Assembly: GCF_003044305.1 (NCBI RefSeq)
Contig: NZ_PZOX01000005.1
Location: 451,493 to 515,492, forward strand
Source: Vitiosangium sp. GDMCC 1.1324
GTDB lineage: Bacteria; Myxococcota; Myxococcia; Myxococcales; Myxococcaceae
Direction: 5' to 3'
DNA: 64,000 nucleotides
In this document: in pieces, positions 21,480 through 42,716 of the stretch
How positions within the stretch are numbered: position 1 is the first letter of the stretch
Layout of the letters: each line of letters starts with the position of its first letter
Notes under the pieces: model-generated
Database searches by the model: none
Seen by the model: the letters and a program-made list of their open reading frames with translations, nothing else
Told to the model about the DNA's origin: nothing
Made by a program: the position numbers and the translations under genes

Positions 21480-21495
21480 GCGGAGGGAAGAGCCC

Positions 21496-23087: not shown

Positions 23088-23210
23088 GGTGGAAGGCCTC
23101 CTGGCGCCGAAGGGCGGGAAACCGCGGCGGCGGATGATGTGCGGCACGAGCAGGATGAGCACTTCCGTCCCCGGGCGGTGGAGATGCCGCCCAGGGAGGG
23201 GAGGGGCGCT

Positions 23211-24827
23211 TCATCCCTGGGGAATGACGATCTGCTGGCCCGGCATGAGGTTGTCTTTGTTGAGGCCGGGGTTGGCCTCCACGATGCGAGGCCATTGATT
23301 GCCGTCGTGCAGGTAGCGCTGGGCGATGTCGTAGATGATGTCGCCCGGCTTGACGGTGTAGAGCGTGCCCTTGGGTTTGTCCTTGGGCGCGTACTGGGAC
23401 GCGTACTGGGACGCGGAGGCCACGGGGCCCGTCTGGTTGGTCCAGCGGGGGCGCCCATCCGGGCCGCGGATGAGCAGGATGCCGTCGTCCCGCATCACCA
23501 GCTCGCTCTTCTCCTGGCCCTGGGTCTTGCTGCTCCACACGGGCGCATTGGCGGCCTGGTACACGACGAGATTGCCGTCGCGCTGCATGGCCGTGCGCCA
23601 GGCCCGCTTGCCCTGGGTGTTGGTGGCCCAGCGGGCCTGCTGGGTGGTCAGGTCGTAGATGACGAGGTTGCCGTCGTCCTGGTACACGAGGGCGAAGCGG
23701 CCGTTGGCGGAGACGAGCCGCTCGCCGGGCGTGAGGAACGCGTTGTCCCCTCCGCGCAGCACGCTCTTGGAGCCTCCGAGGAACACGCCCAGGAGGATCA
23801 GGAGCACGCCCAGCAGCACGCTCGCCGCGAGCCCTGCCTTGAGCAGGGTCAACTGCCGCCGGTTCTTGCGCAGGGCCTCGGCCTCGGGACTCGCCAGGCC
23901 GCTCTCGGGAAAGGCCTTGCGCTCCAGCAGCTGGGTGATGAAGGCCGGAGAGCGGGGCTCGCGCAGCCCGTCCCGGCCCGGCCGGAGGACACCTTCCGCG
24001 TCCGGATCCCCGCAGAAGTAGATGCCTCGCAGCAGCGCGGGCTCCGTGTAGGGGCTGGACTCGAAGAGTCCATCGAGCAGCCGCCGCACCGGCTCGGCCA
24101 TGTCGCGCAGCTGGGAGGGGAAGAGGAAGGCGGACTCGCGCTCGGCCGCGGTGCCGCGCCCATCGGCGAACAGCTCCAGCTGCATCGTGCACAGGCCCTG
24201 GTGGATGCTGGCGAAGGCCTCGTTCACCCACGCGGAGATGTACGGCTCCTGGGGCGGGTGGGGAGTGGACCAGCCGAGCATCTCCTCGCGCAGGCTCGGT
24301 GGCAGGGAGCGGCACCACGCCGTGAAGCCGGGGAGGACGTCACACTGGGTGATGACGACGTAGATGGGGAAGCGCACGCCCAGCTCGCCGCGCAGGGACT
24401 GCAAGCCCTGGAAGAGGGCACGCGCCTTGCGGTCGAGTCCGACGTCGTCGAGCGCCTGCGGGCCCATCAGCTCATGGGCCGGTATCGTGAGCAGCACGCC
24501 GTCGATGGGGCGCTGGCCCCGCACGCGGCGCAGATCTCTCAGCACGCCCTGGAACTCGGGCCCCGGCTCCTCCGTCAGGCCGGGCATGTCGATGACGGCG
24601 CCCTGGTCGTAGAGCCAGACGCCCCAGCCCTCGGCCTCCATCTCCTTGCGGCTGGGCGTACCGTAGGGACGGCGCAGGTGGGCGCCCGCGGCCAGCGAGG
24701 TGCGCCCCGAGCGCGGCTCTCCCACGAGCATGAGCCAGGGCAGTTGGTAGCGGCGATTGCGACGGGTGCCGGTGGCCCCGATGCGGTCGATCGCCGTGTC
24801 GATGGGAGATTTCTGGAGGGCGGTCAT
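23211..24827 (-). CDS. TssM/IcmF-like N-terminal NTPase domain protein fused to TM helix, bulb-type lectin (B_lectin) and C-terminal LysM domain
   Basis: Start MTALQK (ATGA overlap with tssL stop). YQLPWLMLVGEPRSGRTSLAAG (degenerate P-loop), PIYVVITQCDVLPGFTAWC (ImcF-related N-domain). TM LLKAGLAASVLLGVLLILLGVFLGG. Two QxDGNLVxY lectin motifs. LysM YTVKPGDIIYDIAQRYLHDGNQWPRIVEANPGLNKDNLMPGQQIVIP. Confidence 0.7.
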   Translation of the reverse strand: MTALQKSPIDTAIDRIGATGTRRNRRYQLPWLMLVGEPRSGRTSLAAGAHLRRPYGTPSRKEMEAEGWGVWLYDQGAVIDMPGLTEEPGPEFQGVLRDLRRVRGQRPIDGVLLTIPAHELMGPQALDDVGLDRKARALFQGLQSLRGELGVRFPIYVVITQCDVLPGFTAWCRSLPPSLREEMLGWSTPHPPQEPYISAWVNEAFASIHQGLCTMQLELFADGRGTAAERESAFLFPSQLRDMAEPVRRLLDGLFESSPYTEPALLRGIYFCGDPDAEGVLRPGRDGLREPRSPAFITQLLERKAFPESGLASPEAEALRKNRRQLTLLKAGLAASVLLGVLLILLGVFLGGSKSVLRGGDNAFLTPGERLVSANGRFALVYQDDGNLVIYDLTTQQARWATNTQGKRAWRTAMQRDGNLVVYQAANAPVWSSKTQGQEKSELVMRDDGILLIRGPDGRPRWTNQTGPVASASQYASQYAPKDKPKGTLYTVKPGDIIYDIAQRYLHDGNQWPRIVEANPGLNKDNLMPGQQIVIPQG

Positions 24828-25657
24828 CGGCGGTTCTCCTGGGCGGTGCGGGCGGCCGCGGGAGTGTGGTCGTGAGAGGTGTTGAGGACGATGGCGGTGG
24901 GGACGAGGACGAGGATCGCGGCGGCGATACCGGCGGCCCAGGGCCAGCGCGGCGCGAGCCGCCGATCCGAGCGCTCGTCCAGGGTGTGCGCGTAGGTCTG
25001 GGGCAGCAGCCGGCGCGACGGCGCGTCGGGCTCGGGCGGGCGTTGGTGGATGAGCACGTAGAGCTGGCGCTGCAGATCCTGCAGGAGCGCCTCCTCGCCG
25101 TGCTCGCGGTAGCGGCCCTGGAAACCGAGCGCGAGCATCAGCAGGTACACTTCGGCCATCTCGGCCTGGGTCGGGTCGCGGTCCTGCAGCAGGCGCTTCA
25201 CGTCTTCGAAGATGCGCTCGCCGGCGTGGTGGGTGCCAAAGAGCACGTCCTCCAGCAGGCCCTCGCGCCAAGCATCACGGCCGTACCACGGGGTGTTGAC
25301 GAGCACCTCGTCGGCGAAGCTGGCCATCACGTAGCGGCACTGCTCGAGCTGGCGCTCCTGGAGCGAGCCGCGGGGGGCGCCCTCGAGCCGGCTCTGCTGC
25401 TCCACGCGCGCGAGCAGTCGCTGGCGGATCTCCTCGACACTGGGGCCCTGCCGCCCCTGTCCGGAGGGGCGGGAGATGGCCTGCAGGCGTTGGCGCAGCT
25501 CGAGCAGCTCCGTGAAGAGCGTGCGGGTGCGCTCGAGCAACAGGGAGGAGCCGGACGGCTCATCGAAGAAGGGAGGCGTGTTCATGGCGGAAGAGGGCTC
25601 GCGGCGCCTGCCCCGGTCGTTCCAGGACGAGGAGGCGGAATGGGATGACGGACTCAT
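24824..25657 (-). CDS. tssL: T6SS membrane protein TssL (DotU family)
   Basis: LEQCRYVMASFADEVLVNTPWYGRDAW...FGTHHAGERIFEDVKRLL...EVYLLMLALGFQGRY plus C-terminal TM AAGIAAAILVLVPTAIVL. Alternative start ATG 25585. Confidence 0.8.
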   Translation of the reverse strand: MSPSSHSASSSWNDRGRRREPSSAMNTPPFFDEPSGSSLLLERTRTLFTELLELRQRLQAISRPSGQGRQGPSVEEIRQRLLARVEQQSRLEGAPRGSLQERQLEQCRYVMASFADEVLVNTPWYGRDAWREGLLEDVLFGTHHAGERIFEDVKRLLQDRDPTQAEMAEVYLLMLALGFQGRYREHGEEALLQDLQRQLYVLIHQRPPEPDAPSRRLLPQTYAHTLDERSDRRLAPRWPWAAGIAAAILVLVPTAIVLNTSHDHTPAAARTAQENRR

Positions 25658-25714
25658 GTGTGGTGACTCCTTCGGTTCTCAGGGTGAGTGGTGACGGCTG
25701 GATGTGACGTGGAC

Positions 25715-27028
25715 TCACGGCTCGTTGCGGATGAGCAGGGAGATATCGGCGGCGGCCTGCACCTCTCCGGGCTCCAGCGTGTTCTCGAGCAACAGCCGCT
25801 CATCGGGCCGGAGGTAGAAGGGACTGGCCTCCAGGGAGAAGAGGAGCGCACCAGGGCGGGGCACCAGGCCCGCGGGGGGCTCGATGAGCTCGCGCCGGGC
25901 CCCGAGCGTGCGCGTCTCGCGCATCTGCCGGTGGCGCGTGTCCGAGCCGATGCGGCACCCGGCCATCCATCCCAGCACCTGCTGCCGCGTGGTGCCCGGA
26001 CGGCCGCGCACTTCGAGCACCATCTCGCGGCCCATCCACGCGGGGAGCAGGCGCGTGTGGAAGCCGCTGCCCTCGGGAGTGAGCTGCACCCGCGTGTACG
26101 CCTCGGAGAGGCCCCGCTCCAGCGCGCCCTCGACGAAGTCGAACACCTGTTGGAAGGAGCGCAGCGGATCCAGGTGCTCGTACGCGGGGAACGCGGGAGG
26201 GATGCGCACCTCCGCGACGTGGGCGACCTGGCCGGCCAGGGAGCACAACGCGAGGTAGAGGGTGAAGGGGTGCACCTCGCCGGAGCGCAGCAGGGCCTCG
26301 TAGGGCGGCAGCCCGGCCACGAGCCAGTGCAGCTGACGCTGGTGCTCGGCGAGCACGTGCGGCTCGTCGGCGGCGTCGCGCATGGCCTCCACCAGGTGGG
26401 CGGCTTTCTGCCGGACGCGCAGGGAGAGCCGGTCACAGCGCTCGCCGAGCGTCGAATCCAGGCCCACGGCGAGCAGCGGCGGCAGGTAGTCCTCCACGGC
26501 GAAGGACTCGCCCAGGCGGCGCACCTCCACGAGCGGCAGGGAGGCGTACCCGGCGGGAGGCAGGCCGGCGAACAGCTGCAGGCGCGGGGTGAGCTGGGGG
26601 ATGCTCAGCGGCGTGTCCCCGGTGCTCTCGTCGACGAGCGGCTCGCTGGTGGTGGACACGAAGCGGCTGGGATTGCTCGTGCGCCCGGTGGGCACGCCCA
26701 CGTGCAGACGCACCGGGTGCTGCCAGTTCACCTCGGTGAGGCCCGCGAAGGCGAGTTGGAGGGGCGGGGCTCCTTCTCCCGCCTGGTACGAGAGGAACAG
26801 CCCATCGGGCAGCAGGGCCTCCAATTCCCGGAGCTGGAGGGTGCCCGCCACCAGGCGCGTGCGGTCGTACTCCAGCCGGCTCACGCCCCAGTGGAAGGGC
26901 GCGGCCCGCTGGAGATGGAAGTGCAGCAGCGCCTCGTGGTGCTGGTCCTGCTGTTGGAAGTGTTGGGGGGCCAGCAGCATGCCCTCGTGCCATTGCACGG
27001 CGGAGGGAATCGGCGGGGTGGGAGGCAT
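25715..27028 (-). CDS. tssK: T6SS baseplate protein TssK
   Basis: MPPTPPIPSAVQWHEGMLLAPQHFQQQDQHHEALLHFHL... is the canonical TssK N-terminus; 437 aa. Confidence 0.85.
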   Translation of the reverse strand: MPPTPPIPSAVQWHEGMLLAPQHFQQQDQHHEALLHFHLQRAAPFHWGVSRLEYDRTRLVAGTLQLRELEALLPDGLFLSYQAGEGAPPLQLAFAGLTEVNWQHPVRLHVGVPTGRTSNPSRFVSTTSEPLVDESTGDTPLSIPQLTPRLQLFAGLPPAGYASLPLVEVRRLGESFAVEDYLPPLLAVGLDSTLGERCDRLSLRVRQKAAHLVEAMRDAADEPHVLAEHQRQLHWLVAGLPPYEALLRSGEVHPFTLYLALCSLAGQVAHVAEVRIPPAFPAYEHLDPLRSFQQVFDFVEGALERGLSEAYTRVQLTPEGSGFHTRLLPAWMGREMVLEVRGRPGTTRQQVLGWMAGCRIGSDTRHRQMRETRTLGARRELIEPPAGLVPRPGALLFSLEASPFYLRPDERLLLENTLEPGEVQAAADISLLIRNEP

Positions 27029-27680
27029 GAACTGTCTCTCGGAGGGAAGGGAGTCGGCTGGCAGGTCCCCCCAGGTCCGAGCCCGAGGAAATCCGCCTCA
27101 GGGGTGGAGCCACGGTGGGCGCGATGTGATGTGACTGCTTCCGGGACGTGCTTCCCCGCCCGCCGTCAGACCCGCTGGCTGTTGTGCTCGAAGGCTTGTC
27201 CCATGCGCGCCATCAGTTCCTCCGTGCCCAGCCGCCAAAGTCCGGCAGGTGCACCCCGGGTGGGAGGAACCACGTGCACGGGTGGCACTGTATGGGCGCT
27301 TCGTACGCCACCATGTGGTGGACGGAGTGGCGAAGCGATGGGCTGGTACTCGCCCCCTGAGCGGCCGAGCAACCCCGCGCAACCTCGGGCATCCATGCTC
27401 CCGTGCGGCCACCGGGGCCGTACATCGGCGCCCCGCACACGTCACCAAGAGATTCCCCCCGCGTGACCCGAACGATGCTATCGAACAGGCAGCAGACCGG
27501 CCCCTGCTCGGTTAGTTGCTCGACGCCGACCCATGGTCATGGGAGATGGCGGTGCCCGGTGAAGAGTGGGCCCAGGGACGTACGCAGTTCCCGGTTCGAG
27601 GCCGAGCTCGTCCCGGGGAGCAGGTGATCAACGTGGACACAGCAGTCATGCATGACGGTCAGTCGCGGGGACAGGCCCCC

Positions 27681-31556: not shown

Positions 31557-32138
31557 ATGGTCATCGGACAGCATCTCGGTGGTAGGGTCGGCGCCGTGAA
31601 TCAAAGGCTGATCTTCGATTACACACTGCAGAGCAACCTCCGGGTGCTGGGACAACCGCTCGCGCCCGAACATGTCTCCGGGCTGATGGAGCTGGGCGTC
31701 GACCCGAGCAGGCCGTTGCTGCCGGCGTACCCGGTGGAGACGTACACCGCGGTCATCGACTTCATCGCCGCGCAGCTGTGGCCGGGGCTGCCTCGGGACG
31801 AGGCGGGCTTCGAGCTGGGCCGGGCCTTCATGCGCTCGTACCGGGAGACGCTGATGGGCAAGGCGGTGCTCTCGGTGACGCGGGTCATCGGGCCGCACCG
31901 GACCCTGGAGCGCATGAACCGCAACTTCCGCAGCGCGAACAACTACACCGAGACGCGCCTGCAGAAGGTGGGGCCGAGCACCTACGAACTGTGGTTCAAC
32001 TATGCGATGCGCACCGGCTACTTCCGGGGGCTGATCACCGAGGCGCTGGAGAAGACCAGCGCCAAGGCGCTCTCGGTGACGCTCGTCGCCAGCAGTACCG
32101 GCGGCGAGGCCACGTTCCGCATCTCGTGGACGGATTGA
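31557..32138 (+). CDS. TIGR02265/DUF2378-like protein (myxobacterial paralogous family), tentative
   Basis: 193 aa. Its 3' ~125 nt is duplicated at 34496-34628. Confidence 0.5.
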   Translation: MVIGQHLGGRVGAVNQRLIFDYTLQSNLRVLGQPLAPEHVSGLMELGVDPSRPLLPAYPVETYTAVIDFIAAQLWPGLPRDEAGFELGRAFMRSYRETLMGKAVLSVTRVIGPHRTLERMNRNFRSANNYTETRLQKVGPSTYELWFNYAMRTGYFRGLITEALEKTSAKALSVTLVASSTGGEATFRISWTD

Positions 32139-32146
32139 GCCTCCCG
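32021..32146 (+). repeat. Repeat A copy 1 (intact 3' end of gene 31557-32138)
   Basis: ~90% identical to 34496-34628. Confidence 0.85.
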
Positions 32147-32168
32147 CGGGGAGGGGCAACGGTCCCGA

Positions 32169-32288
32169 TGCGGCATCCCGGAGACACGCCTGAGACCGGC
32201 TCGCGCCGCCCGGAAACCGGCTGGCGACAAGCGCATGGAGCCTTCGAGAAGCGGCCCCCATCATTGCACTCCAGGAGGGACCATGAAC
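32169..32288 (+). repeat. Repeat B copy 1: 120-bp conserved upstream element ending ...ctccaggagggaccATGAAC
   Basis: ~83% identity, gap-free, to 39484-39603. Contains direct repeats GAGACCGGCT/GAAACCGGCT with 21-bp periodicity. Confidence 0.8.
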
Positions 32289-32328
32289 CTGATGACGCAC
32301 CCCGCCACCGGGCGCGTAGGCTGCGGCA

Positions 32329-33633
32329 ATGATGCAGAGAGCTTCGTTCCTCCTCCCTCGCCTGTTCCTAGCGCTGAGCCTCGCCCTTGCCTCCTCGTGT
32401 GCCACCTCTCAATCCGGTGTGGCCGACAACCAGAGCCAACCACCTGCTGAGCCCCAAGTGGTGCGCGCCACGTGGTTGCTGGGAGAGCAGCTCCAGCTCG
32501 ACTTCGAGCCCGTCCCGCTGCCTCCCCGTCTGGAGACAGTCACGGTGGAGGAAATCCGTTCGGTGCTTGCCGACTTCCTCCAATGCGTCGAGGACACGTC
32601 CCAGTTCCAGATCCTTCCCGTCCTGGCCTCATCCACGAGCGGGCTCCCGCCATGGGAAGCGCGGCTGCGTGCGGAGTTCCTCACCCGGTACGGCCCAGGG
32701 CTGTTGCCACTGCCCGACTCGTTGGAACGCAGCCCGCTTTTCATGGCCCTCAGGCTCTCGCCTCGCTATATGGGGCCGGGCCTCCGCGACGCAGCGCGAG
32801 AGCTGTTCCGCTCGCCCATCTTCCTGGCCAGCGTCACTCTGTCGATCCTGGTGTACTTCTCCGCGTGGGTGCTGCCCGAGCCCCTCTTCTCCAAGGCGTT
32901 CGCCGCCACGCTTACCGCCAGGCTCGCGCTCGCGGTGGGACTGTTGGAGCTGCGCAACATCGCGCTGGCCTTCCTGCAGTTCTACAGAGAGGCACAAACG
33001 GCCAGGACGATGAAGGAGATAGAAGCCGTCGCCGAGAGGTTCGGCCGTGCGCTCGGAGGCACGGCGCTGCGCGTGCTCGTCATGGCCGCCAGCTTCGGCG
33101 TGGCGAAGGCCCTGCCCAACGTGCCTCCCGGCGGGCTCGGCCCGCTGCTGAGTTCTCCACGCTTTGCCATGGCGGGGGGAGGAAGCGTCCAGTTCGCGAG
33201 CACGGCTCATGTGGTGGCGGACGGCACCATTGTTCTCGCGGGAGCGGCCATGGGGACTGCCGGCTCCACGGCGGGCGGTGTCTGCAGTGACGGCTCCGAG
33301 AAGAAGGACGGCTACCAGTGGCACCACCTGGCCACAGACAAGAATGACGCTTCACCTCTGAGAGGTGGACCTTGGACACCGCGCTTCCAGCGGCTCTTTG
33401 GCAAGGCGGGAATGCAGCTCAACGATCCCGCGAACCGCGTCTACCTCTTGGGCCATCTGGGACCACACCCAGAGCGGTATCACGCGGAAGTCCACCGGAG
33501 GCTCGAAGCAGCCCTGGAAGGCTGTGGCAGCATCTCGCAGTGCAGAGTGCGCTTGGTGGAGGAACTCCGAAGAATCAAGGATGAAGTATGCACCCGCGGC
33601 TCCCCCCTGCATCGGCTCCTGACGGAATCGTGA
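32329..33633 (+). CDS. lipoprotein polymorphic toxin with C-terminal HNH/EndoVII-fold nuclease domain of WHH/AHH type (SitA-like)
   Basis: Lipobox LALSLALASSC. C-terminal DGYQWHHLATDKNDASPLRGGPW...QLNDPANRVYLLGHLGPHPERYHAEVHRRL (HH...N...H...H pattern of WHH/AHH toxin domains). Confidence 0.6.
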   Translation: MMQRASFLLPRLFLALSLALASSCATSQSGVADNQSQPPAEPQVVRATWLLGEQLQLDFEPVPLPPRLETVTVEEIRSVLADFLQCVEDTSQFQILPVLASSTSGLPPWEARLRAEFLTRYGPGLLPLPDSLERSPLFMALRLSPRYMGPGLRDAARELFRSPIFLASVTLSILVYFSAWVLPEPLFSKAFAATLTARLALAVGLLELRNIALAFLQFYREAQTARTMKEIEAVAERFGRALGGTALRVLVMAASFGVAKALPNVPPGGLGPLLSSPRFAMAGGGSVQFASTAHVVADGTIVLAGAAMGTAGSTAGGVCSDGSEKKDGYQWHHLATDKNDASPLRGGPWTPRFQRLFGKAGMQLNDPANRVYLLGHLGPHPERYHAEVHRRLEAALEGCGSISQCRVRLVEELRRIKDEVCTRGSPLHRLLTES

Positions 33634-33656
33634 AGGATCGAGGCGAGAGTCAAAGT

Positions 33657-34220
33657 ATGACTTGGTATTACGATTTACTGGACGACACGCGGCTGCCAGG
33701 AAGATGGCAGCTTGGGGCGCCCCTGGATGATGGGGGAAACGAAATCGACCCGTGGCAGTTCAAGAAAGGGCGCGTTCTGGAGCTGGGATGCGTGCCCCGC
33801 TTCACGCTTGATCTTCCTGGCCATCCGCTGGATTTCAGCTGGGCGGCTTTTAGCATCCCAGTGGTCTCTGGCCGCTTCGCCAAACTGTTCGAGCGACTGC
33901 GCGTAGAGGGTGTGCAGTTCATTAAAGCCCAGGTCGATGATCAGCCAGAGCCCTGGTACATCCTCAACGCGCTCCGGATCATCCGTTGTATTGATGACGC
34001 TCGTAGTGAGCAAGTCCAATACTGGAAGCCCCAAGACAACCGGCCGGACAAGCTGGGCGAGTATCGTGCTGTCTATGGCATGCGCATTGACTCAGCGAAA
34101 GTAGGGGACGCTCGCATCTTTCGTCCTTGGGGCTGGCGCGTAGCGCTCATCGTTGCAGGGGACATCAAGCAGGCCATCGAAGACACGAACCTCTCTGGAG
34201 CAAGATTCGTAGAGGTTTAG
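33657..34220 (+). CDS. putative cognate immunity protein (lower GC)
   Basis: 187 aa, MTWYYDLLDD...; immediately 3' of the nuclease toxin gene, small and cytoplasmic. Family not recognised. Confidence 0.45.
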   Translation: MTWYYDLLDDTRLPGRWQLGAPLDDGGNEIDPWQFKKGRVLELGCVPRFTLDLPGHPLDFSWAAFSIPVVSGRFAKLFERLRVEGVQFIKAQVDDQPEPWYILNALRIIRCIDDARSEQVQYWKPQDNRPDKLGEYRAVYGMRIDSAKVGDARIFRPWGWRVALIVAGDIKQAIEDTNLSGARFVEV

Positions 34221-34263
34221 AGGCGGCGCGAATCGAACCCGCGCTGGGCGGTGCGAAACCTCT
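34211..34263 (-). other. tRNA T-arm-like stem-loop (minus strand CGCGG-GTTCGATT-CGCGC) nested in an 8-bp outer stem; possible tRNA 3' fragment/att remnant or terminator
   Basis: GGTTCGATTC motif on the minus strand. Outer complementary AGAGGTTT / AAACCTCT. Sits right after the immunity gene stop. Confidence 0.25.
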
Positions 34264-34320
34264 AGTACTACTGTGTCATAAACGTCAGGCTCTGCCGGTG
34301 ACGGTACGGACAGCCGATGC

Positions 34321-34500
34321 ATGAAGGATGAGGACTGCCCGAAAGAGTTCTCCTGCCTGCCCGTCAAAACCAAGGATGGACAGGCCCTGGTCCGCAGGTG
34401 CTCGCTCATTGGAGAGCGGAAGGAAGGAGAAAGGTGTGACGTGCTCGCACGCAGTCATCGTTTCGGCTGCGCGCGAGGACTCCTCTGCCAGGCGGGCACC
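34321..34500 (+). pseudogene. Cys-rich gene fragment (DEDCPKEFSCLPVKTKDGQALVRRCSLIGERKEGERCDVLARSHRFGCARGLLCQ)
   Basis: Orphan ORF fragment fused to repeat A copy 2; no start context. Confidence 0.3.
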
Positions 34501-34628
34501 GGCTACTTCCGGGGGCTGCTCACCGAGGCGCTGGAGAAGACCAGCACCTCGGCTCTCGGTGACGCTCGTCACCAGCAGTGCCGGCGGCGAGGCCACATTC
34601 CGCATCTCGTGGACGGATTGAGCCTCCC
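34496..34628 (+). repeat. Repeat A copy 2 (frameshifted fragment of the TIGR02265-like gene 3' end)
   Basis: GYFRGLLTEALEKTS... then a 2-nt deletion; ...LSVTLVTSSAGGEATFRISWTD* continues in another frame. Confidence 0.85.
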
Positions 34629-34724
34629 ACAGTGGGCTCTCTCCGGGCCAGAGAGTCCTTCTCCTATGCTATCTCCGGGTGACTCGAGTACGCAGAGGAG
34701 CGCGATGGATACCGAAGTGGAAGT

Positions 34725-35643
34725 CATGAAGACGCGGTGGTTGTTACCCGCGGCGTTGCTGCTGGCCATCACGGGATGCGGTGCGCGTTCCGGTGGCGCG
34801 GAAGGCAAGGTCACGTACGCGGAGGTGCCCAGCCCGAGTGAGCCCCGCGGGGTGCATCCGCTGACACTCGACATCGCGGTGCCAGAGGGGCCGGGGCCCT
34901 TTCCCGCAATCGTCTTCATCCACGGTGGCGGATGGGTCATCGGAGATCTGCACGAAGGGAATCTCGAAGAACGAGTCCAGGAAGCGAGCCGGCGGGGCTT
35001 CGTCGGGGTGACCCTCAACTATCGACTCGCGAACCTCGACGATGGACACGGCAAGGCCCTCCATCCCTGGCCGGCGCAACTGCAGGACGTGCGTTGTGCG
35101 CTCCGGTGGCTCGCCGCGAATGCCTCCACGTACAAAGTGGATACGGCCCGGGTGGGGGTACTCGGCCAGTCCGCCGGCGGGCACCTCGCGATGATGTCGG
35201 CGTACGCCCGAAACGACGCACGCTTCGAGCCAGCCTATTGCCCCTACAACGAGAACCTCGAGGTGAAGGCCGTGGTGTCCATGTGCGGCGCCGGTGACCC
35301 CGCGTCCGTCTATGAGACGACAGACTGGTGGGTCAAACCCTACATCTCCCGGTTCCTCGCGCTGCCGGACGGAGCGAAGGTGCGGGATGCGCCCGAGGTC
35401 TTCGCTGACGTCAGCAACCTCACCTACATGGGCCGCGGGCCCAAGGTGCCCCTGCTGATTCTCCAGGGGACGAAGGACACCCTCGTCGTCCCCGAGGTGC
35501 AGCGAGCCTTCGCGGCATCAGCCGAGCTGCTCGGGCAGGAGGTCCACGTCCAGTACTTCGAAGGCGCGGGCCACGACATTGATGCCACCCACCGGGCCGA
35601 GTCGGACGTGCACATCTGGAAGTGGTTCGGGGAGCGGCTATGA
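34725..35643 (+). CDS. lipoprotein alpha/beta hydrolase (esterase/lipase, HGGG + GxSxG)
   Basis: MKTRWLLPAALLLAITGC lipobox; IVFIHGGGWVIGD; GVLGQSAGGHLA. Confidence 0.75.
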
Positions 35644-36170
35644 AGATGCGCCACTTCATCGGCATGCTCGTCCTGCTGGGGGCGCCGCGAGCACTGGCTC
35701 AGTCAGGCGAAGCGCAGACCCAAGCTCCAACCGCGGAGCCCTTCGCTCTTCGGCTGGGGCTCAGCGCCCGGCCGCTCATCGGGCTCAGTGGGCTGAGTGC
35801 TATCAGGACCCACACGCTTCGGGACGGAGGGTGGGTGGTCGCGGACGTCGCCCCCTCCTACCGCCTGTCACGATTCTTCGCCGCCGAGCTCGGCCTGTCG
35901 GCGATGGTGCCCGTGAAGGACGCGTGGGGGTTTCCGGACTTCCGGCTCGCGGTGACACCCGCTGCCCGGCTCGATGCCGGGCCTCTCTACCTGCGCGTCG
36001 GGGTCCCCTTGATGTTCGGGGAGGGATTCAGCATGGGCGCACAGGCCGCGGTGGGCGCGACGCTCTTCAACCACTTCTACGTGGGAGTCGTCGGGGAGGC
36101 CAACGTCAGAGACCTCCTGGGGATGGCGGGGCTCGAACTGGGCGTCCGCTTGGGTGGCCCGAAGCCCTGA
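35640..36170 (+). CDS. secreted hypothetical protein (possible small beta-barrel)
   Basis: Signal peptide MKMRHFIGMLVLLGAPRALAQ; ATGA overlap with the upstream esterase gene. Confidence 0.5.
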   Translation: MKMRHFIGMLVLLGAPRALAQSGEAQTQAPTAEPFALRLGLSARPLIGLSGLSAIRTHTLRDGGWVVADVAPSYRLSRFFAAELGLSAMVPVKDAWGFPDFRLAVTPAARLDAGPLYLRVGVPLMFGEGFSMGAQAAVGATLFNHFYVGVVGEANVRDLLGMAGLELGVRLGGPKP

Positions 36171-36711
36171 CAAAGAGCGCGGAGCCAAGCAACGTCTTGG
36201 CGCGCGCCACCAGTCGCGAGCGATCCTGGGCGGGAACGGCCAGCATGCCCCCCTCGATCATCGCCCAGCTGCACACGAAATCGTCGAGCGTCACACCCGG
36301 CCGCACGAGTCCCTGCGCTCGCGCCGCCTCCACCGGCCCGGCGAGCAGGCCGCGCAACTGCTGGTTCAGTTGTTCGAGGGCTGTCCTCCCTGCTTCCGTG
36401 GATGCCAGGTACGGGTGCAATCCCGGGATGGCGCTCAAGGTGTCAGCGATCCAGAAGAAGATCTCCTCGACGGAGCGGGCCGGGTCGGGGGCCGCGGCGA
36501 GGCGTTGTTCGATGAGGTCCACGCGGCGCTCGATCATCGCCCGGGCGAGGTGGTCGCGATCCGGGAAGTGGCGGTAGAGCGTGCCTCGCCCGACCCCGGC
36601 GCGCTCGGCGATGAGCTGGAGCGGCACGTGGAGGCCGTGCTCACGGAAGACCTGTTCGCCCGCCTCGAGGAGAAGTTCGCGGTTGCGTTGAGCGTCCTGT
36701 CGTTGCGTCAC
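36106..36711 (-). CDS. TetR family transcriptional regulator
   Basis: HTH ...LQLIAERAGVGRGTLYRHFPDRDHL...; GTG start (VTQRQDAQRNRELLLEAG) chosen over the upstream ATG, which would place the operators inside the gene. Confidence 0.8.
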   Translation of the reverse strand: MTQRQDAQRNRELLLEAGEQVFREHGLHVPLQLIAERAGVGRGTLYRHFPDRDHLARAMIERRVDLIEQRLAAAPDPARSVEEIFFWIADTLSAIPGLHPYLASTEAGRTALEQLNQQLRGLLAGPVEAARAQGLVRPGVTLDDFVCSWAMIEGGMLAVPAQDRSRLVARAKTLLGSALFVRASGHPSGRPVRAPPSPGGL

Positions 36712-36730
36712 GCCCAGGAGTGTACCCCAC

Positions 36731-36794
36731 GAAATGGACACCCATGTCCGCTTCGTGGTATGGCGCTTCCAGAAACGGACATCCATGTCCGCTT
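36731..36794. promoter_or_regulatory. two copies of a 23-bp operator-like repeat, each with the 14-bp palindrome GGACAyCCATGTCC, between tetR and the divergent SDR gene
   Basis: aaatGGACAcCCATGTCCgcttc (36731-36753) and aaacGGACAtCCATGTCCgcttc (36772-36794). Confidence 0.55.
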
Positions 36795-36833
36795 CTCCGG
36801 AGAAACAACCCTACGCCCAGGGAGACCCGCCCC

Positions 36834-37658
36834 ATGACCGCACCGCACAAGGACGTCATCGTCATCACTGGCCTCGGCGGCATGGGCCTCGCCACCGCCC
36901 GCCGCCTCGGCTCCGGCCGCCAGCTCGTCCTCGCTGACTACGCCCAGGAGCTCCTCGACCGCGTCGCCGACACCCTCCGCGGCGAAGGCCACACCGTCCA
37001 CCCCCTCCGCGTCGACGTCTCCGACCCGCGGTCCGTCGAACGGCTCGCCCAGCACGCAGGTGCCCTCGGCTCGCTCCGCGCTGTCGTGCACACCGCCGGC
37101 GTCTCCCCCGTGCAGGCCAGCCCCGAGCGGGTCGTGCAGGTGGACGTCCTCGGCACCGCCCACGTCCTCGATGCCTTCCTCCCCTTCGTGACGCTCGGCA
37201 GTGTCGCCGTGTGCATCGCCTCGATGGCCGGTGCGATGGTCCCCCTCCCCCCCGAGGCCGAACGGGCCCTCGCCACCACCCCCACGAGCGAGCTCGCGGG
37301 GCTCCTCATGCTCGACCCCAAGAAGCTCGATTCCGGCGCCGCCTACAGCGTGGCGAAGCGCGCGAACCAGTTGCGCGTCCAGGCGGCGTCGATTCCGTGG
37401 GGGCGGCGGGGCGGCCGGGTGGTCAGCGTCAGCCCGGGCATCATCTCCACCCCGATGGGTCAGGCGGAGTTGCAGGGCCCTCACGCAGAGGCCATGCGCG
37501 GCATGATTCAAGCGTCCGGCACGGGGCGCATCGGCACCCCGGACGACATCGCCAGCGCCGTCGAGTTCCTGATCAGCCCTCGGGCGTCATTCATCACCGG
37601 CACCGACCTCCTCGTCGACGGCGGCGCCGTCGCCGCGGCGCGCTACGCCCGGCCGTAG
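36834..37658 (+). CDS. SDR family oxidoreductase
   Basis: ITGLGGMGLATARRLG (Rossmann); catalytic YSVAK; start at MTAPHKDVIVITG. Confidence 0.8.
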   Translation: MTAPHKDVIVITGLGGMGLATARRLGSGRQLVLADYAQELLDRVADTLRGEGHTVHPLRVDVSDPRSVERLAQHAGALGSLRAVVHTAGVSPVQASPERVVQVDVLGTAHVLDAFLPFVTLGSVAVCIASMAGAMVPLPPEAERALATTPTSELAGLLMLDPKKLDSGAAYSVAKRANQLRVQAASIPWGRRGGRVVSVSPGIISTPMGQAELQGPHAEAMRGMIQASGTGRIGTPDDIASAVEFLISPRASFITGTDLLVDGGAVAAARYARP

Positions 37659-37766
37659 CGCATCCCTTCCACGAACCCCATCAGGAGCATTTCCATCAAG
37701 GGAGCCCCCCATGAGGGTGGGGAGGCTCACCGGCCGATGCCCCTTATCGGACTTCCCTGAAGCAGG

Positions 37767-39392
37767 TCAGAACTTGAAGTTCCCGCCATCCAGCGTCGTG
37801 GAGCTGCCGCAGGCCGCCGTGGTGGCCTCGCGGTTGCCGCTGGAGGTGGAGGCGTTGCTCTCCCACACGGCCGTGCTGCCGTTGTACTTGACGAACTTGT
37901 ACTGGATGGCGGTGGAGGGGCTGAGCTGCACCGTGCCGCTCCAGGTGACGTTGGCGCCCGAGCCCTGGATGGTCAGCTTGAAGCCGTTGGCCGGAGTCCA
38001 ATTGCCCAGCTGCGACTGGTTGCCCACCACGTAGAGATCCTGCCCGAACGTGGTGTTCGCGTTGCTGATGCTGAAGGTCACGGGCACCGTGGTGCACGTA
38101 CCACCGCCCCCTCCGGTTCCACTCGTCCACACCGCATAGTTGGACCCCGACGCGGCCTGCGTCCAGCCGGTGCCCGGGCTCCAGGAGTTGGGGCCGATCT
38201 TCACCGCCGTGTTGCCGTTGATGATGGCCGCGTAGAGGCCCGTCTCGGCGACCTGGATGGCCACCGTGGAGGTCGAGGTGATGCCCTGGGCCTTGCGCAC
38301 GTCCATCAGCGCCTTGATCTGCGCCTTGAGGCCCCAGTCGTAGATGTGCGGGTAGTAGACCGAGGGGATACCCGGATGCGTCAGCACGTAGGCATAGCCC
38401 TGCATCACCTTGTCACAGGGCACCGGCCAGTGGTTCTGCCCGTTGCCACAGGACTCGCTCGGGCCGGTGTCGTGGTTGTCCACGAACGTCACGGACTTCT
38501 GCGCCCACCAGCCGATGGCCCCCGCCGGCTTGCCCGCGGAGTCCTTCAGCCGCCCGTACTCGTTGTTGGCCAGCGCCTGGTTGAGCAGACCCTTGGTGGT
38601 GAAGTCGAACGCGCCGCACGTCCCCTGCGTCCCGTCGATCCAGTTCATCAACTGCTGACGGTGCGCATCCACGTTGTTGTAGTCGAGGTTCGTCCAGATC
38701 TCGCCGACACAGAAGTCCGGCTGCATGGCGTCCTGGTAGAGCTTCGCGTAGCTGGGGGCATAGCCCTTGGAATAGTCAAAGCGGATGCCACTGAAGCCCA
38801 CGCCCTTGAGCCGGCTGGACAGCCAGTTCTTGAGGTCCGTCTGGACGACGGAGTTGCTGTGATCCAGGTCCCGGGCGGCGCTGTAGCCATCTCCCGAGTC
38901 CGCGGCGCCCGTGGAGCAATTGCACTCATCGCCCGCGGCGATGGAGGACGTGCCCCAGGACGGATTGGTGAAGTCATACCAACCGGTCGACCCCACGCGG
39001 TGGTTGATCACCACGTCCGCCACCGACTTGATGCCAGCGTTGGAGAAGGCGGTGATGGCGTTCTTCAGGTCGGTCTCGCTGCCGTAGCTGGAGTTGAGGA
39101 CGTTGAGCTGGCGCGGCAGGTAGCCCTGCGTGGAGGCCGCGTCGGAGGGCGGCGGGAGCCACACGTGGGTGAAACCCATGGCGCCCAGGTCGCTCGCCTT
39201 GCCCTGCAGGACGTTGTACCAGTTGGGGTTGGAGTAGCTGGCCGAGTTCCAATGAAAACCCTGCACCAGGATGGCCGTGCTGGCCTGGGTCTGCTGGGTG
39301 GCCGCGGCGGCCTCTCGGGCCGGAACCAGACAGGCCAGCGCCAGCGCGGCGTACGACATCCACTTCGAATGGTTCATCTTCTTGTTTCTCAT
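37767..39392 (-). CDS. secreted alpha-amylase (GH13) with C-terminal CBM20 starch-binding domain
   Basis: Signal peptide. GFTHVWLPPP, DVVINHR, GIRFDYSKG, FVDNHDT (GH13 regions I-IV). C-terminal VTFSISNANTTFGQDLYVVGN...LGNW...QYKFVKYNGSTAVWESN (CBM20). Confidence 0.85.
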   Translation of the reverse strand: MRNKKMNHSKWMSYAALALACLVPAREAAAATQQTQASTAILVQGFHWNSASYSNPNWYNVLQGKASDLGAMGFTHVWLPPPSDAASTQGYLPRQLNVLNSSYGSETDLKNAITAFSNAGIKSVADVVINHRVGSTGWYDFTNPSWGTSSIAAGDECNCSTGAADSGDGYSAARDLDHSNSVVQTDLKNWLSSRLKGVGFSGIRFDYSKGYAPSYAKLYQDAMQPDFCVGEIWTNLDYNNVDAHRQQLMNWIDGTQGTCGAFDFTTKGLLNQALANNEYGRLKDSAGKPAGAIGWWAQKSVTFVDNHDTGPSESCGNGQNHWPVPCDKVMQGYAYVLTHPGIPSVYYPHIYDWGLKAQIKALMDVRKAQGITSTSTVAIQVAETGLYAAIINGNTAVKIGPNSWSPGTGWTQAASGSNYAVWTSGTGGGGGTCTTVPVTFSISNANTTFGQDLYVVGNQSQLGNWTPANGFKLTIQGSGANVTWSGTVQLSPSTAIQYKFVKYNGSTAVWESNASTSSGNREATTAACGSSTTLDGGNFKF

Positions 39393-39483
39393 CGGTGGGG
39401 GGGTCCGAGGGCGAGGGGTCCCCTTCAACCACTTTCGCCGTGTATGACTTGATTTCCTCACTATCGGTGAAGTCAAGGAGCGG

Positions 39484-39603
39484 TGCGGCATCCCGGTGAG
39501 AGACTCGAGACCGGCTCGCGCCGCCCGGAGACCGGCTGGCGACAAGCACATGGAGCCGTGGAGGACCGGGACCCATCCTGGCGCTCCAGGAGGGACCATG
39601 AAC
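39484..39603 (+). repeat. Repeat B copy 2, provides SD and start codon of the acyltransferase gene
   Basis: See repeat B copy 1; two perfect GAGACCGGCT direct repeats 21 bp apart. Confidence 0.8.
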
Positions 39604-40770
39604 CCGATACCGAAACCCGCCATCGAGCGCCGCCCGGACCTGGACTGGCTCCGGGTGGTGGCGATCCTGCTGCTCCACCTCTTCCACACCGGAATGATGT
39701 TCAACTCCTGGGACTGGCACCTGAAGGCCCCCGAGCTCCTGCCCGTCCTGGAGCCCCCCATGGAGCTCCTGCACCACGTGCGCATGCCCCTGCTGATGCT
39801 CATCTCGGGGGCGGTCACGGCCGTGGCCCTGAGACGGCGGGGAGTCGGGGCGTTCGTGTGGGACCGGACGAAGCGCCTGCTGTGGCCGCTCGTCTTCGGC
39901 ATCTTCGTCATCGTCCCGCCGCAGATCTACGCCGAGCGCCTCTTCCGGGGCACCTTCCACGGCGGCTATCTGGACTTCTACCCGTCCGTCTTCCAGTTCG
40001 TGTCCTACCCCGCGGGCAGCTTCAGCTGGCACCACCTCTGGTTCGTGGCCTACCTCTTCGTCTACTGCCTCCTGGCCGCGCCCCTGTTCGCATGGCTGGA
40101 GACGACTCGAGGCCGGGCCTGCTTCGAGCGCGCCGAGGAGTGGCTCGCGCGGGGATGGAACCTCTGGCTCCTCTTTCTGCCCCTGGCCCTGGGCCGCATC
40201 CTGCTGCGGCGCTTCCCCGAGACGCACGCGCTCACCGACGACCCCAACACCTTCGTCTACTACGGCCTGCTCTTCCTGCTCGGGCACCTGCTCGGCCGAG
40301 GCTCCCGGCTCCAGGAGCGGCTGGTGGTCATGCGCCAGCGTTCCCTGGCAATCTTCGGGGTGCTCTTCGCGCTCATGGTGCCGCCCTCCGAGTACCCCTT
40401 CCCCTTCGAGCACCTCGGCACCTACGCCTTCGTGTGGTGCCTGCTGCTCACTGCCCTCGGCTACGCGCGAGCCCACATCACCACGCGCAGCGCCTGGGTG
40501 ACGTACGCCCAGGAGCTCGCCTATCCGTTCTACATCCTCCACCAGACCGTCATCGTGCTCGTGGGCTTCATGCTCCTGCGGCCAGCCGTGGGCCCGTGGA
40601 CCCGCTTCGGACTGGTGCTCACCCTGTCCTTCCTCGTCACCTGGGCACTCTGCGAGGGCGTGAAGCGCGTGTCCTGGCTCCGCCCCTGCTTCGGCATGGC
40701 AGGCCGGAAGCCGGTGGCGCCGGGAGCGGTTCCCTCCCCGAGTCCCCTCGAGGCGAAGTCCGGAGTCTGA
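39598..40770 (+). CDS. acyltransferase family 3 (OpgC-like) membrane protein
   Basis: MNPIPKPAIERRPDLDWLRVVAILLLHLFH...; ~10 TM helices. Confidence 0.8.
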   Translation: MNPIPKPAIERRPDLDWLRVVAILLLHLFHTGMMFNSWDWHLKAPELLPVLEPPMELLHHVRMPLLMLISGAVTAVALRRRGVGAFVWDRTKRLLWPLVFGIFVIVPPQIYAERLFRGTFHGGYLDFYPSVFQFVSYPAGSFSWHHLWFVAYLFVYCLLAAPLFAWLETTRGRACFERAEEWLARGWNLWLLFLPLALGRILLRRFPETHALTDDPNTFVYYGLLFLLGHLLGRGSRLQERLVVMRQRSLAIFGVLFALMVPPSEYPFPFEHLGTYAFVWCLLLTALGYARAHITTRSAWVTYAQELAYPFYILHQTVIVLVGFMLLRPAVGPWTRFGLVLTLSFLVTWALCEGVKRVSWLRPCFGMAGRKPVAPGAVPSPSPLEAKSGV

Positions 40771-40776
40771 GTCCCC

Positions 40777-41949
40777 ATGGAAGCCACCCCCACGCGCCAG
40801 CCCGCACTGGAGTCCCGCCCCTGGCGCTGGCCGAACATCCGTCCGCGCCCGGCCCTGGCGTTGCTCGGGTTCGGCGTGACCGTGGGCCTCTGGCTGGGCA
40901 GCACGGTGTGGCTCACCCTGAGGGCGGACGGCAGCACGGTGCCCTGGACCCGCCCCTTCCTGTGGGAGCTCACCGGGGCCCTCAGCGCCCTCCCGCTGCT
41001 GCCCATCCAGCTGACCGCCGTGCTGAACGCCCCGAGTCCCCGTGCCTCGGGGGAGAACCGTGGCGCGGCGTGGGGGCGCTTCCTCGGCATCCACCTGGGC
41101 GCCTTCCTGCTCTACACCTCCCTGCACATCCTCTTGATGGTGGGCTCCCGGCACCTGCTCTACTCGCTCCTGGGATGGGGCTCCTACAACTACGGGCTCC
41201 TGGGCTTCCGGGTGCCCATGGAGGTCCAGAAGGATCTGATCGTCTACGGGCTCTCCTACACGGGCCTCACCCTCTACGGTGCCTGGAAGGAGCGCCAGGA
41301 GAACGCCCTGCGCGAGGCCCGGCTCGAAGGACAGCTCAAGGCCGCCCAGCTCCGCGCGCTCATGGGCCAGCTCAACCCGCACTTCCTCTTCAACGCGCTC
41401 AACACCATCAGCTCCGTGATGTACGAGGACCTGGCGAAGACGGACCGGCTCCTGAGCGACCTCGGGCTGCTGCTGCGCGAGAGCCTCGAGCGCGGCACGG
41501 GCCCCACCTGGCCGCTCGCCGACGAGCGCAAGCACACCGAGCGGTTCCTCGCGCTGATGCAGGCCCGCTTCGGTGAGCGGCTCCGCGTCCGCTGGGAGCT
41601 GGAGCCCGGTCTGGAGCCCCTCCCCGTCCCCCGCTTCGCGCTGCAGCTCCTGGTGGAGAACGCCCTCAAGCACAACCAGGAGCAGCTCACCGGGCTGGAG
41701 GTCCGGCTCCGGGCCCGGAGCGAGTCCGGCGCCCTGCTGCTGGAGGTCGAGGACACCGGACGGGGCCTCGCGCGCCCCTCCCCGGCGACACACGGCTCCG
41801 GCCTCGGCCTCACCGGGCTCCGGCAGGCGCTGGAGCTGCTCCATGGTCCCGAGGGCCACCTGGAGCTGGGCGCGGGCCCCGAGGGTGGCGCCCGCGTCCG
41901 CATCCGGGTGCCCCTCTCGCGGACCCGTTCCGAGGAGGCCCTGCCATGA
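40777..41949 (+). CDS. sensor histidine kinase, LytS/YehU family
   Basis: N-terminal TM domain; QLNPHFLFNALNTISSVM (His_kinase); HATPase GLGL. Confidence 0.8.
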   Translation: MEATPTRQPALESRPWRWPNIRPRPALALLGFGVTVGLWLGSTVWLTLRADGSTVPWTRPFLWELTGALSALPLLPIQLTAVLNAPSPRASGENRGAAWGRFLGIHLGAFLLYTSLHILLMVGSRHLLYSLLGWGSYNYGLLGFRVPMEVQKDLIVYGLSYTGLTLYGAWKERQENALREARLEGQLKAAQLRALMGQLNPHFLFNALNTISSVMYEDLAKTDRLLSDLGLLLRESLERGTGPTWPLADERKHTERFLALMQARFGERLRVRWELEPGLEPLPVPRFALQLLVENALKHNQEQLTGLEVRLRARSESGALLLEVEDTGRGLARPSPATHGSGLGLTGLRQALELLHGPEGHLELGAGPEGGARVRIRVPLSRTRSEEALP

Positions 41950-42716
41950 CGACTCCCCTCTCCGTGCTCGTGGTGGATGACGAGGCCCCTGCCCGGGCCA
42001 AGGTGAAGCGCTTCCTCGCGGAGGATGAGCGATTCTCCCTCGCCGGAGAGGCCCAGGACGGCGCCGAGGCGCTCGCACGCATCGAGGTGCTGAAGCCACA
42101 CCTGGTGCTGCTCGACATCCAGATGCCAGGGCTCACCGGGTTCGAGGTGTTGGAGGCCCTGGGGCCCGAGCGCTGCCCCGAGGTCATCTTCTCGACGGCC
42201 TATGATCAGTTCGCCCTGAAGGCCTTCGACGCCCACGCCGTGGACTACCTGCTCAAGCCCTACGACGCCGAGCGATTCCGGAAGGCCCTGGACAAGGCCT
42301 GGACCCGGCTCGACGGGGGGCGTACCGACACGGAGCGCCTGAAGGCGCTGCTCTCCAGCCTGGAACCAGGCCGGGAAAAACCCCTGGAGCGCCTGCTGGT
42401 GAAGACCGGGGAGGCCTGGATCGCCCTGCGCGTGGACCGGGTGAGCCGCTTCTCCGCCGAGGACAAGTACGTGCGCGTCTTCTCCGACGAGGGCGAGCAC
42501 CTGGTGCGCCAGACGCTCAAGCACCTCGAGGAGCGCCTGGACCCGCGGCGCTTCGTGCGCGTCCACCGCAGCGAGCTCATCCAGTTCGACGCCGTGGTCC
42601 GGCTGGAGCCCTGGAGCCATGGCGATGGCCTGCTGATGCTCCGGGACGGCAGCTCCGTGGTGCTCAGCCGCACCTACCGGGAGGCCTTCCTGGAGCGGTG
42701 GGGCGTGGAGGGGTAG
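41946..42716 (+). CDS. LytTR-family response regulator
   Basis: REC domain (VLVVDDEAPAR...LLDIQMPGLTGFEV) plus LytTR DNA-binding domain; ATGA overlap with the kinase gene. Confidence 0.85.
   Translation: MTTPLSVLVVDDEAPARAKVKRFLAEDERFSLAGEAQDGAEALARIEVLKPHLVLLDIQMPGLTGFEVLEALGPERCPEVIFSTAYDQFALKAFDAHAVDYLLKPYDAERFRKALDKAWTRLDGGRTDTERLKALLSSLEPGREKPLERLLVKTGEAWIALRVDRVSRFSAEDKYVRVFSDEGEHLVRQTLKHLEERLDPRRFVRVHRSELIQFDAVVRLEPWSHGDGLLMLRDGSSVVLSRTYREAFLERWGVEG

Follow-up and report, generated by a model that had tools for sequence, protein, structure and literature searches.

In a 64,000-nucleotide (nt) window of the genome of Vitiosangium sp. GDMCC 1.1324 (Archangiaceae), we analyzed a two-gene toxin-immunity module located at positions 32316-34227 of the plus strand. 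We concluded that it is probably a horizontally acquired SitA-like cassette that was inserted by illegitimate recombination, which left two copies of local sequence at the site. The module comprises a sitA-like gene for a lipoprotein toxin (32329-33633) and a sitI-like gene for an immunity protein of the Imm11 family (33657-34220), and the toxin open reading frame (ORF) is 100% identical to DAT35_17910, a hypothetical protein of the same strain with a database start at 32332. An earlier note, made from the sequence, had proposed that a lipoprotein nuclease toxin and its immunity gene were inserted at the 3' end of a resident gene and bracketed by direct repeats of that end. Coordinates are window positions throughout; L numbers denote fetched comparison loci and contigs, and P numbers denote database protein homologues.

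Toxin and immunity genes

The toxin begins with a signal peptide that carries a lipobox (MMQRASFLLPRLFLALSLALASS-C24-ATS; LALASS-C24). Across 26 toxin homologues (54-86% identity), C24 is invariant and S23 is at least 90% conserved, in line with the lipoprotein signal recognized earlier. The C-terminus matches the Pfam family AHH (PF14412) over amino acids (aa) 322-420 (E 1.5e-18, 67.2 bits against a cut-off of 22.3), and residues H332, H333, N369, H376, H380, and H385 are invariant in the same homologues. The literal motif is W331-H332-H333, yet the matching profile family is AHH, and the WHH (PF14414) and SHH profiles gave no match to the toxin at E<=0.01. The hidden Markov model search of the C-terminus that the earlier note had proposed thus returned an HNH-family hit; of its designation as a WHH/AHH-type HNH nuclease, the HNH/EndoVII fold, the AHH profile, and the W-H-H letters stood, whereas membership in the WHH or SHH families did not.

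The signal peptide and C24 are followed by a variable region (aa 25-108), a helical escort core (aa ~109-283), a linker, and the AHH domain (aa ~321-434). An AlphaFold2 model had a mean predicted local distance difference test score (pLDDT) of 62, with the C-terminal nuclease domain alone predicted confidently; four long helices were modeled at aa 136-260, and the pLDDT fell below 50 at aa 256-316, in the linker. A Foldseek search of the model against the PDB gave nothing at E<1 and was uninformative, and a PDB sequence search with the toxin gave no match. We concluded that the protein is a lipoprotein with a predicted C-terminal AHH DNase of the HNH/EndoVII fold.

The immunity gene starts 23 nt past the toxin stop codon on the same strand and encodes 187 aa. 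Its product matches Imm11 (PF07791; E 6.7e-11, 42.3 bits against a cut-off of 22.1) and MXAN_0049, the solved Imm11 prototype (PDB 6a4c, E 0.0014). As described before, it is a small gene of lower G+C content (GC): its GC is 57% and its GC at third codon positions (GC3) is 0.65, compared to a GC3 of 0.79 for the toxin gene and 0.86-0.93 for native neighbours. A 187-aa Imm11 gene also follows the toxin gene in L048 and L050-L054, and the counterpart in L049 was called at 158 aa; the pairing of toxin and Imm11 is preserved in all 7 contexts. As judged from these matches and this arrangement, 33657-34220 is the predicted Imm11 immunity protein of the toxin. In one of these loci, the metagenome contig L052, the AHH-Imm11 pair is followed downstream by another Imm11-like copy (7968-8486), which has diverged to 69% nt identity with the first; this extra copy resembles the additional imm11 genes reported in M. 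xanthus.

Placement in the SitA family

SitA toxins are lipoproteins that form six families, each defined by its N-terminal escort domain, with the SitA5 escort domains being the most diverse (Cossey et al., PMC8546572). AHH-Imm11 lipoprotein loci have been assigned to SitAI5 (PMC12077181), SitI5 proteins are Imm11 proteins whose toxins move by outer-membrane exchange (bioRxiv 10.64898/2026.08.28.747804), and the pairing of AHH with Imm11 (SitI5) was found in eight DK1622 loci (PMC12077181; bioRxiv 10.64898/2026.08.28.747804). The single NCBIfam match of the present toxin was to SitA5_escort (NF050093), with model positions 138-255 of 262 aligned to toxin aa 138-256 (E 5.3e-21, 75.3 bits against a curated cut-off of 160). 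Two other proteins score 215 bits (the canonical SitA5 of locus L006) and 309 bits (P0245) on this model; by BLASTP, the L006 protein is 32% identical to the toxin, confined to aa 172-283. The SitA6 family is defined by a toxin in PF09533 and a double-CXXCG immunity protein in PF09535 (PMC12077181); neither PF09533 (DUF2380/TIGR02269) nor PF09535 was matched at E<=0.01, and the locus lacks the features of SitA6. Based on the lipobox, the partial SitA5_escort match, the AHH-Imm11 pair, the classification in the literature, and the absence of PF09533, the cassette was therefore filed as a putative SitAI5-like AHH-Imm11 locus of a distinct subfamily. The resemblance to the SitA/SitI toxins suggested in the earlier note holds, though with an escort score below the cut-off.

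The locus shares with known SitAI loci a lipoprotein signal, an AHH nuclease at the C-terminus behind an N-terminal escort region, and, directly downstream in the same orientation, a gene for Imm11 immunity, as well as many paralogues per genome at scattered locations and faster divergence of the toxin and immunity domains than of the escort core. Across contexts, identity is 86-95% for the escort core, 63-89% for AHH, and 65-88% for the immunity protein, as expected for a specificity-determining pair. The same strain encodes a second copy (P0112) that is 56% identical. The locus differs from the other SitAI loci in that the curated SitA5 escort model is matched in its C-terminal half only, that a separate region specific to the family makes up the first ~110 mature residues, and that AHH is fixed rather than swapped: all matches listed (120 of 422) carry PF14412. 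This AHH-fixed subfamily with a SitA5-like core was found across Archangium, Cystobacter, Hyalangium, Pyxidicoccus, and Vitiosangium.

When the escort region (aa 24-321) was used alone in a profile-free search of the full database (298 representatives), all sampled relatives scored 64-87 bits against that same half of the SitA5 model, and their C-terminal toxins were of the AHH, CdiA_C, RNase A, Tox-REase-5, and Tox-REase-9 types. Four proteins from this search (P0149, P0152, P0158, and P0173) have the helical core (toxin aa ~110-283; SitA5_escort ~108-260) in mid-protein, between an N-terminal eCIS_core domain and C-terminal toxins. The eCIS_core (PF13699)/DUF4157 polymorphic toxins are similar to the present toxin in placing this helical hydrophobic core ahead of varied C-terminal toxins (AHH, Tox-REase-9, and others), but they are 800-1300 aa long, lack a lipobox, and start with eCIS_core, which implies a different export route. 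The escort core may be a translocation module common to two delivery systems.

By analogy with experimentally studied SitAI loci, the lipoprotein would most likely sit anchored in the outer membrane and be handed to neighbouring myxobacterial cells through outer-membrane exchange dependent on TraA/TraB. Its escort domain would then bring the nuclease into the recipient cytoplasm, where it would cut DNA in cells that lack the cognate Imm11 protein; the locus could therefore act in kin discrimination, as a 'self barcode', and in addiction.

Boundaries of the transferable module

The same two genes were found paired in seven unrelated contexts on the contigs of close homologues, next to genes that include an aspartate kinase, a MarR-like gene, a BBE oxidase, an adhesin, and a Ser/Thr kinase. 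Nucleotide homology spans 32316-34227 in L048 (89.1%) and 32317-34223 in L049 (86.2%) and then ends abruptly, with unrelated flanks. In view of these sharp ends, the moving unit therefore consists of the two ORFs with ~13 nt upstream and 7 nt downstream, and it is apparently promoterless.

Self-blast detected no flanking direct repeats around the pair in six other loci, and flanking repeats were thus rejected as a general hallmark of the cassette. No recombinase ORF (integrase or transposase) was found within 29-38 kb, and IMG/VR viral contigs contained no relatives of the cassette, leaving phage carriage unsupported. None of the signs of an integrative island (an integrase, repeats at the exact ends of the unit, or a tRNA/tmRNA remnant) was present. 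The module resembles promoterless cassettes and orphan modules, such as integron cassettes and the orphan C-terminal toxin-immunity modules of Rhs and CdiA, in being compact, with little flanking sequence of its own, transcription from the host context, and many contexts. It differs in having no attC-like element, no integrase, and no upstream toxin-gene fragment for C-terminal swapping, and in that the duplicated fragments come from unrelated neighbouring genes.

Two duplications of local sequence

The resident gene upstream of the module (31557-32138, plus strand) belongs to the DUF2378/TIGR02265 family (PF09536, E 1e-43; TIGR02265, E 2e-36) and is syntenic with a DTW gene in related genera. 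Its intact 3' end and 7 nt past the stop codon form the left copy of a 135-nt direct repeat (32011-32145), whereas the right copy on the same strand (34496-34628, 133 nt) has 7 substitutions and a 2-nt deletion that shifts the frame. The two are 93.3% identical over 135 columns (blastn E 9e-53). The ~130-bp repeat, its intact left copy, and its frameshifted right copy had all been recognized in the earlier note; the left copy starts at 32011 rather than at 32021 as given there. A 36-mer from the repeat occurs twice in the window and was absent from 100 shuffles. The right copy is closest to the local left copy, at 93% compared to at most 85.5% for any orthologue (best L014). Past the right copy, from 34629 onwards, the window continues with the esterase-to-amylase segment. 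Between the left repeat and the module lie 170 nt, and 268 nt separate the module from the right repeat; the direct repeats are not the ends of a mobile unit.

Comparison of 31900-37900 with the whole window revealed a second duplication, which is absent from the earlier note. The segment 32166-32315, here termed B', is a 150-nt plus-strand match to 39481-39630 (83%, E 9e-40) and is 86% identical to positions 8885-9033 of the Cystobacter fuscus locus L059. Its source comprises the upstream region, the ribosome-binding site, and the first 13 codons of an Acyl_transf_3 gene that heads an acyltransferase-LytS-LytTR operon (39453-42743, plus strand; Pfam Acyl_transf_3, His_kinase with HATPase_c, and Response_reg with LytTR, the LytTR gene being at 41946-42716). 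B' is separated from the left repeat by 20 nt (32146-32165) and ends at 32315, abutting the start of the module exactly. With L059 as a third copy, B' was found to hold ancestral states that have since changed in the local source.

Together, the copied fragments mark both ends of the interval 32011-39630. To the left, the foreign block (32316-34495) meets a copy of where this interval ends, and to the right a copy of where it begins; the arrangement therefore looks like a tandem-duplication junction in which the first copy was later mostly deleted. A site-specific or transposase-mediated event appears not to have been involved, and illegitimate recombination is the likely route; it would have left the acyltransferase 5' end at the left end of the cassette and the DUF2378 3' end 268 nt past its right end. 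Foreign DNA (X) may have been ligated between staggered positions on two chromosome copies, giving [a..b]-X-[a..b], with subsequent deletion of most of the first copy. Alternatively, a single replicative template-switch or break-repair event may have stitched short nearby templates to a foreign fragment. We cannot choose firmly between these two routes; a third, in which the incoming DNA already carried B' and duplicated 135 bp of the target, ranks below them, since B' would go unexplained. With drift in both non-coding copies and constraint on the functional DUF2378 copy, B' would be expected to be the more divergent, as observed (17%, compared to 7% for the DUF2378 repeat).

The right flank of the module

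Between the module and the right repeat lie 268 nt of DNA with a GC of 61% and no assigned strand (34228-34495), which showed no homology to the fetched loci or elsewhere in the window. A hairpin at 34211-34263, which overlaps this segment and has the motif GGTTCGATTC on the minus strand, had been likened to a tRNA T-arm. ARAGORN found no tRNA anywhere in the window, Rfam gave nothing at E<=1 and at E<=10 only an 18-nt tmRNA T-arm match (E 7.6), and the folding energy is ordinary (z-score -0.24); on these grounds, a tRNA or att remnant was rejected. The 15-nt matches in Corallococcus loci fall outside tRNA genes. The orphan Cys-rich ORF fragment noticed earlier does exist, at 34321-34495; its best Pfam match had an E of 0.19, assigning it to no family, and no homology was found in any fetched locus. 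Hairpin and fragment are best described as orphan DNA of lower GC that arrived or was captured with the cassette.

Cys-rich fragment, frameshifted DUF2378 copy, and an esterase gene lie within one continuous 440-codon ORF (34321-35643), and automatic annotation could report a chimeric protein there. For the esterase itself, the most likely start is 34708, where it has a lipoprotein signal of its own (MKTRWLLPAALLLAITGC). This gene (34708-35643, plus strand; BD-FAE/alpha-beta hydrolase, PF20434, E 9e-41) is the first one to the right of the repeat; it is absent from the Archangium loci and is lineage-specific at this site.

The insertion site in related genomes

The site was surveyed by a scan of a genome collection anchored on the upstream DTW gene, which yielded 47 loci, among which the EamA-ArsC-ORF-DTW block is conserved. 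In about ten Archangium, Cystobacter, and metagenome genomes (L002, L005, L008-L010, L013-L015, L041, and L058), DUF2378 follows DTW, and no cassette lies downstream. In five of them (L002, L005, L008, L010, and L014), the alpha-amylase gene follows with its 3' end (window 37860 onwards) ~200 nt past the DUF2378 stop codon; the position of this gene in the window is 37767-39338, downstream of the esterase. Missing from these loci is 32139-37760, with the cassette, the repeat copy, the esterase, a 182-aa ORF, and the TetR and SDR genes. The metagenome contig L058 retains 88% nt identity through DUF2378 and then continues into an unrelated 552-aa gene. All comparisons lose homology no more than a few nt from the DUF2378 stop codon. 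In L011, an Archangium metagenome-assembled genome (MAG), only the last 40 nt of DUF2378 remain (10607-10646), between DTW and the block equivalent to window 42720 onwards. The DUF2378 3' end therefore appears to recur as a rearrangement breakpoint. Searches for closer relatives gave nothing above 84% besides the source at the DUF2378 protein level, a metagenome scan with DUF2378 recovered relatives of only 41-53%, and the contig index had no entry for the exact toxin.

As judged from these loci, the spot is a rearrangement hotspot, and the cassette is not ancestral at the genus level. The comparison with related genomes, of the kind proposed in the earlier note, found the cassette not to be ancestral at this site. 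Its proposal of an insertion at the 3' end of the resident gene agrees with the ten or so related genomes without a cassette after DUF2378, but the repeats are not the ends of the unit and the second duplication is left unexplained.

Among the other variable segments of the hotspot, a toxin cassette was found in L006 alone; others carry a gene of ~1160 aa. In L006, an Archangium MAG, the canonical SitA5 gene (215 bits, no Pfam toxin-domain match) is inserted between DTW and DUF2378 (10976-13311), on the other side of the same resident gene, and is followed by a gene for a 208-aa protein with faint pentapeptide-repeat similarity.

Alternative explanations

Spelled out, the insertion proposed in the earlier note would mean that a circular or linear segment (32146-34495) integrated into the DUF2378 3' end, either by homologous (Campbell-type) recombination or by staggered insertion, with duplication of a target of ~135 bp; the incoming copy would restore the gene and the displaced copy would decay. 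This account explains why direct repeats bracket the insert, with an intact in-frame left copy and a right copy bearing a 2-nt deletion and 7 substitutions, and why the two copies are each other's closest relatives; the related genomes also lack the insert. However, it does not explain the copy of the acyltransferase leader, from 7 kb downstream, at the left end of the cassette, and the repeats lie 170 and 268 nt away from the ends of the conserved module. There is no integrase, the tRNA remnant is non-significant, six other contexts have no flanking repeats, and a donor carrying the DUF2378 3' end, B', and sitAI in that order would be needed, which only moves the problem elsewhere. We consider this integration unlikely. 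It is still far more improbable that nothing was inserted, that is, that the cassette is ancestral in the lineage and was lost in other genera, with the repeats as leftovers of unrelated rearrangements. Deletions do happen here, since the junction after DUF2378 is differently rearranged in nearly every genome (amylase, 552-aa gene, ~1160-aa gene, DUF2378 stump in L011), and the closest comparison genome has only ~88% nt identity. Nevertheless, the module is 86-89% nt identical, with sharp edges, to copies in unrelated contexts, and flanking housekeeping genes are no more similar in true orthologues; its GC3 is atypical; and vertical descent would need many independent and precise losses in about ten genomes of several genera.

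It is also very improbable that the toxin is an effector of a type VI secretion system (T6SS), the one encoded 5 kb upstream (11.9-27.1 kb), like Tox1-4/Imm1-4 of M. xanthus. The cluster (11912-27028) looks complete, with TssA, VipA, VipB, Hcp, VgrG, TssK, and an IcmF-related protein; in M. xanthus, the T6SS has been proven to carry AHH-Imm11 pairs (PMC12077131, PMC12077181), and the immunity protein matches MXAN_0049. The M. xanthus pairs (Toxin1-4/Imm1-4, e.g. MXAN_0050/MXAN_0049; PDB 6a4c) indeed share with the present one the nuclease superfamily, the immunity family, presumed DNA cleavage, and neutralisation by binding. They differ in having a short variable N-terminus, no lipoprotein signal, and a dependence on an adjacent PAAR protein, whereas the present toxin has a lipobox and an escort region of ~300 aa. 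Its Sec/lipoprotein signal with the invariant lipobox Cys is absent from T6SS cargo, and its escort core is SitA5-like. No PAAR gene is adjacent, the neighbours being DUF2378 and the esterase, whereas PAAR is adjacent in 5 of 6 homologous M. xanthus T6SS AHH loci, including Tox1-4 (PMC12077131). In seven other genomes the cassette is not beside T6SS genes. Furthermore, T6SS-delivered and exchange-delivered AHH/Imm11 pairs form distinct clades (PMC12077181), and lipoprotein AHH toxins have been described as a class of their own, with delivery by outer-membrane exchange (PMC12077131, PMC12077181).

Acquisition of a SitA-like module by illegitimate recombination accounts best for these data, although several observations weigh against it. 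The SitA5_escort score is below the cut-off (75 vs 160 bits) and covers the C-terminal half of the model only, the first ~110 residues past the lipobox are unrelated to canonical SitA5, and the occurrence of the same core in the 800-1300-aa eCIS_core (PF13699) toxins means that the core alone is no proof of delivery by outer-membrane exchange. No relative of the host above 90% identity was found (the best, L058, is at 88% nt), and the order of events, an empty-site allele, and a tandem-duplication intermediate were not seen. Alignments of the downstream flanks of the two DUF2378 copies to Archangium intergenic DNA, made to tell which flank is ancestral, were non-significant either way (p 0.01-0.8). 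Finally, the two duplicates differ in divergence (7% vs 17%) and fit a single event only if constraint differed between them.

A candidate promoter in B'

B' contains a pair of 14-nt direct repeats (GARACCGGCTSGCG) at 32192-32226 on the plus strand, 21 nt apart start to start, that forms a candidate LytTR site upstream of sitA. In the window the pair occurs only here and at 39507-39541, it was absent from shuffles, and it is invariant in all three copies. B' and its source differ at 1 of 35 positions in the paired repeat and at 24 of 115 elsewhere (34/35 conserved, compared to 79%; Fisher p 0.0095, post hoc). LytTR sites typically consist of 9-bp repeats with a 12-bp spacer. The binding sites of LytTR regulators such as AgrA are paired direct repeats located upstream of their promoters (PMC4227749). 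A consensus scan of 31900-34800 found no sigma-70-like promoter, and terminators were at chance level.

Since the cassette has no upstream sequence of its own, B' may supply a candidate LytTR-dependent promoter to it. A more specific scenario, which we regard as doubtful, is that the cassette was captured by duplication-generating illegitimate recombination and fused in the same event to a copy of the autoregulated LytS/LytTR promoter. The conservation test on the repeats was post hoc, and a distant operon (L061) keeps the motif partly and with other spacing. Moreover, the acyltransferase start codon is retained in B' and opens a 71-codon out-of-frame ORF over the sitA start (32329/32332; region 32283-32450), a further caveat. 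This ORF may couple to or interfere with sitA translation.

Other variable segments in the window

The acyltransferase-LytS-LytTR operon (39453-42743) is 93.7% nt identical to L059 8857-12145 of Cystobacter fuscus Cbf 10 (acyltransferase 94% aa), where it lies at a different locus and is flanked by IS91- and IS110-type transposases. The flanking housekeeping genes of the two genomes are 65-74% identical, so the operon reflects a recent horizontal transfer of a 3.3-kb unit. The Archangium loci L002, L008, and L014 show a precise empty site for it, with both edge sequences kept (GTGAAGTCAAG ... AAAAGACCGCGG). Another segment, of 16.5 kb (11112-27648), carries the T6SS genes 11912-27028 (TssA/ImpA_N, VipA, VipB, Hcp, VgrG, TssK, and an IcmF-related-N protein with LysM); the syntenic Archangium loci lack this segment, and in them window 11112 is joined directly to 27648.

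Implications

None of these findings overturns current understanding, and their contribution is incremental. As self-identity barcodes, SitAI loci determine which myxobacterial cells can cooperate; the loci are both mobile and numerous, but the routes by which individual cassettes reach new chromosomal sites are poorly described. The present locus is an example from outside Myxococcus in which the moving unit can be two genes alone, with ends ~13 nt and 7 nt beyond the coding regions, and in which integration occurred without a recombinase signature and left duplicated scraps of local genes. If the tentative fusion to the LytS/LytTR promoter copy were true, this strain would produce the exchanged toxin not constitutively but in response to an environmental or cell-envelope signal, and, more generally, sitAI modules would travel as bare pairs of genes that have to acquire a promoter wherever they insert. 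The sharing of the escort core with eCIS_core toxins may help to define the part of the escort domain that serves membrane translocation.

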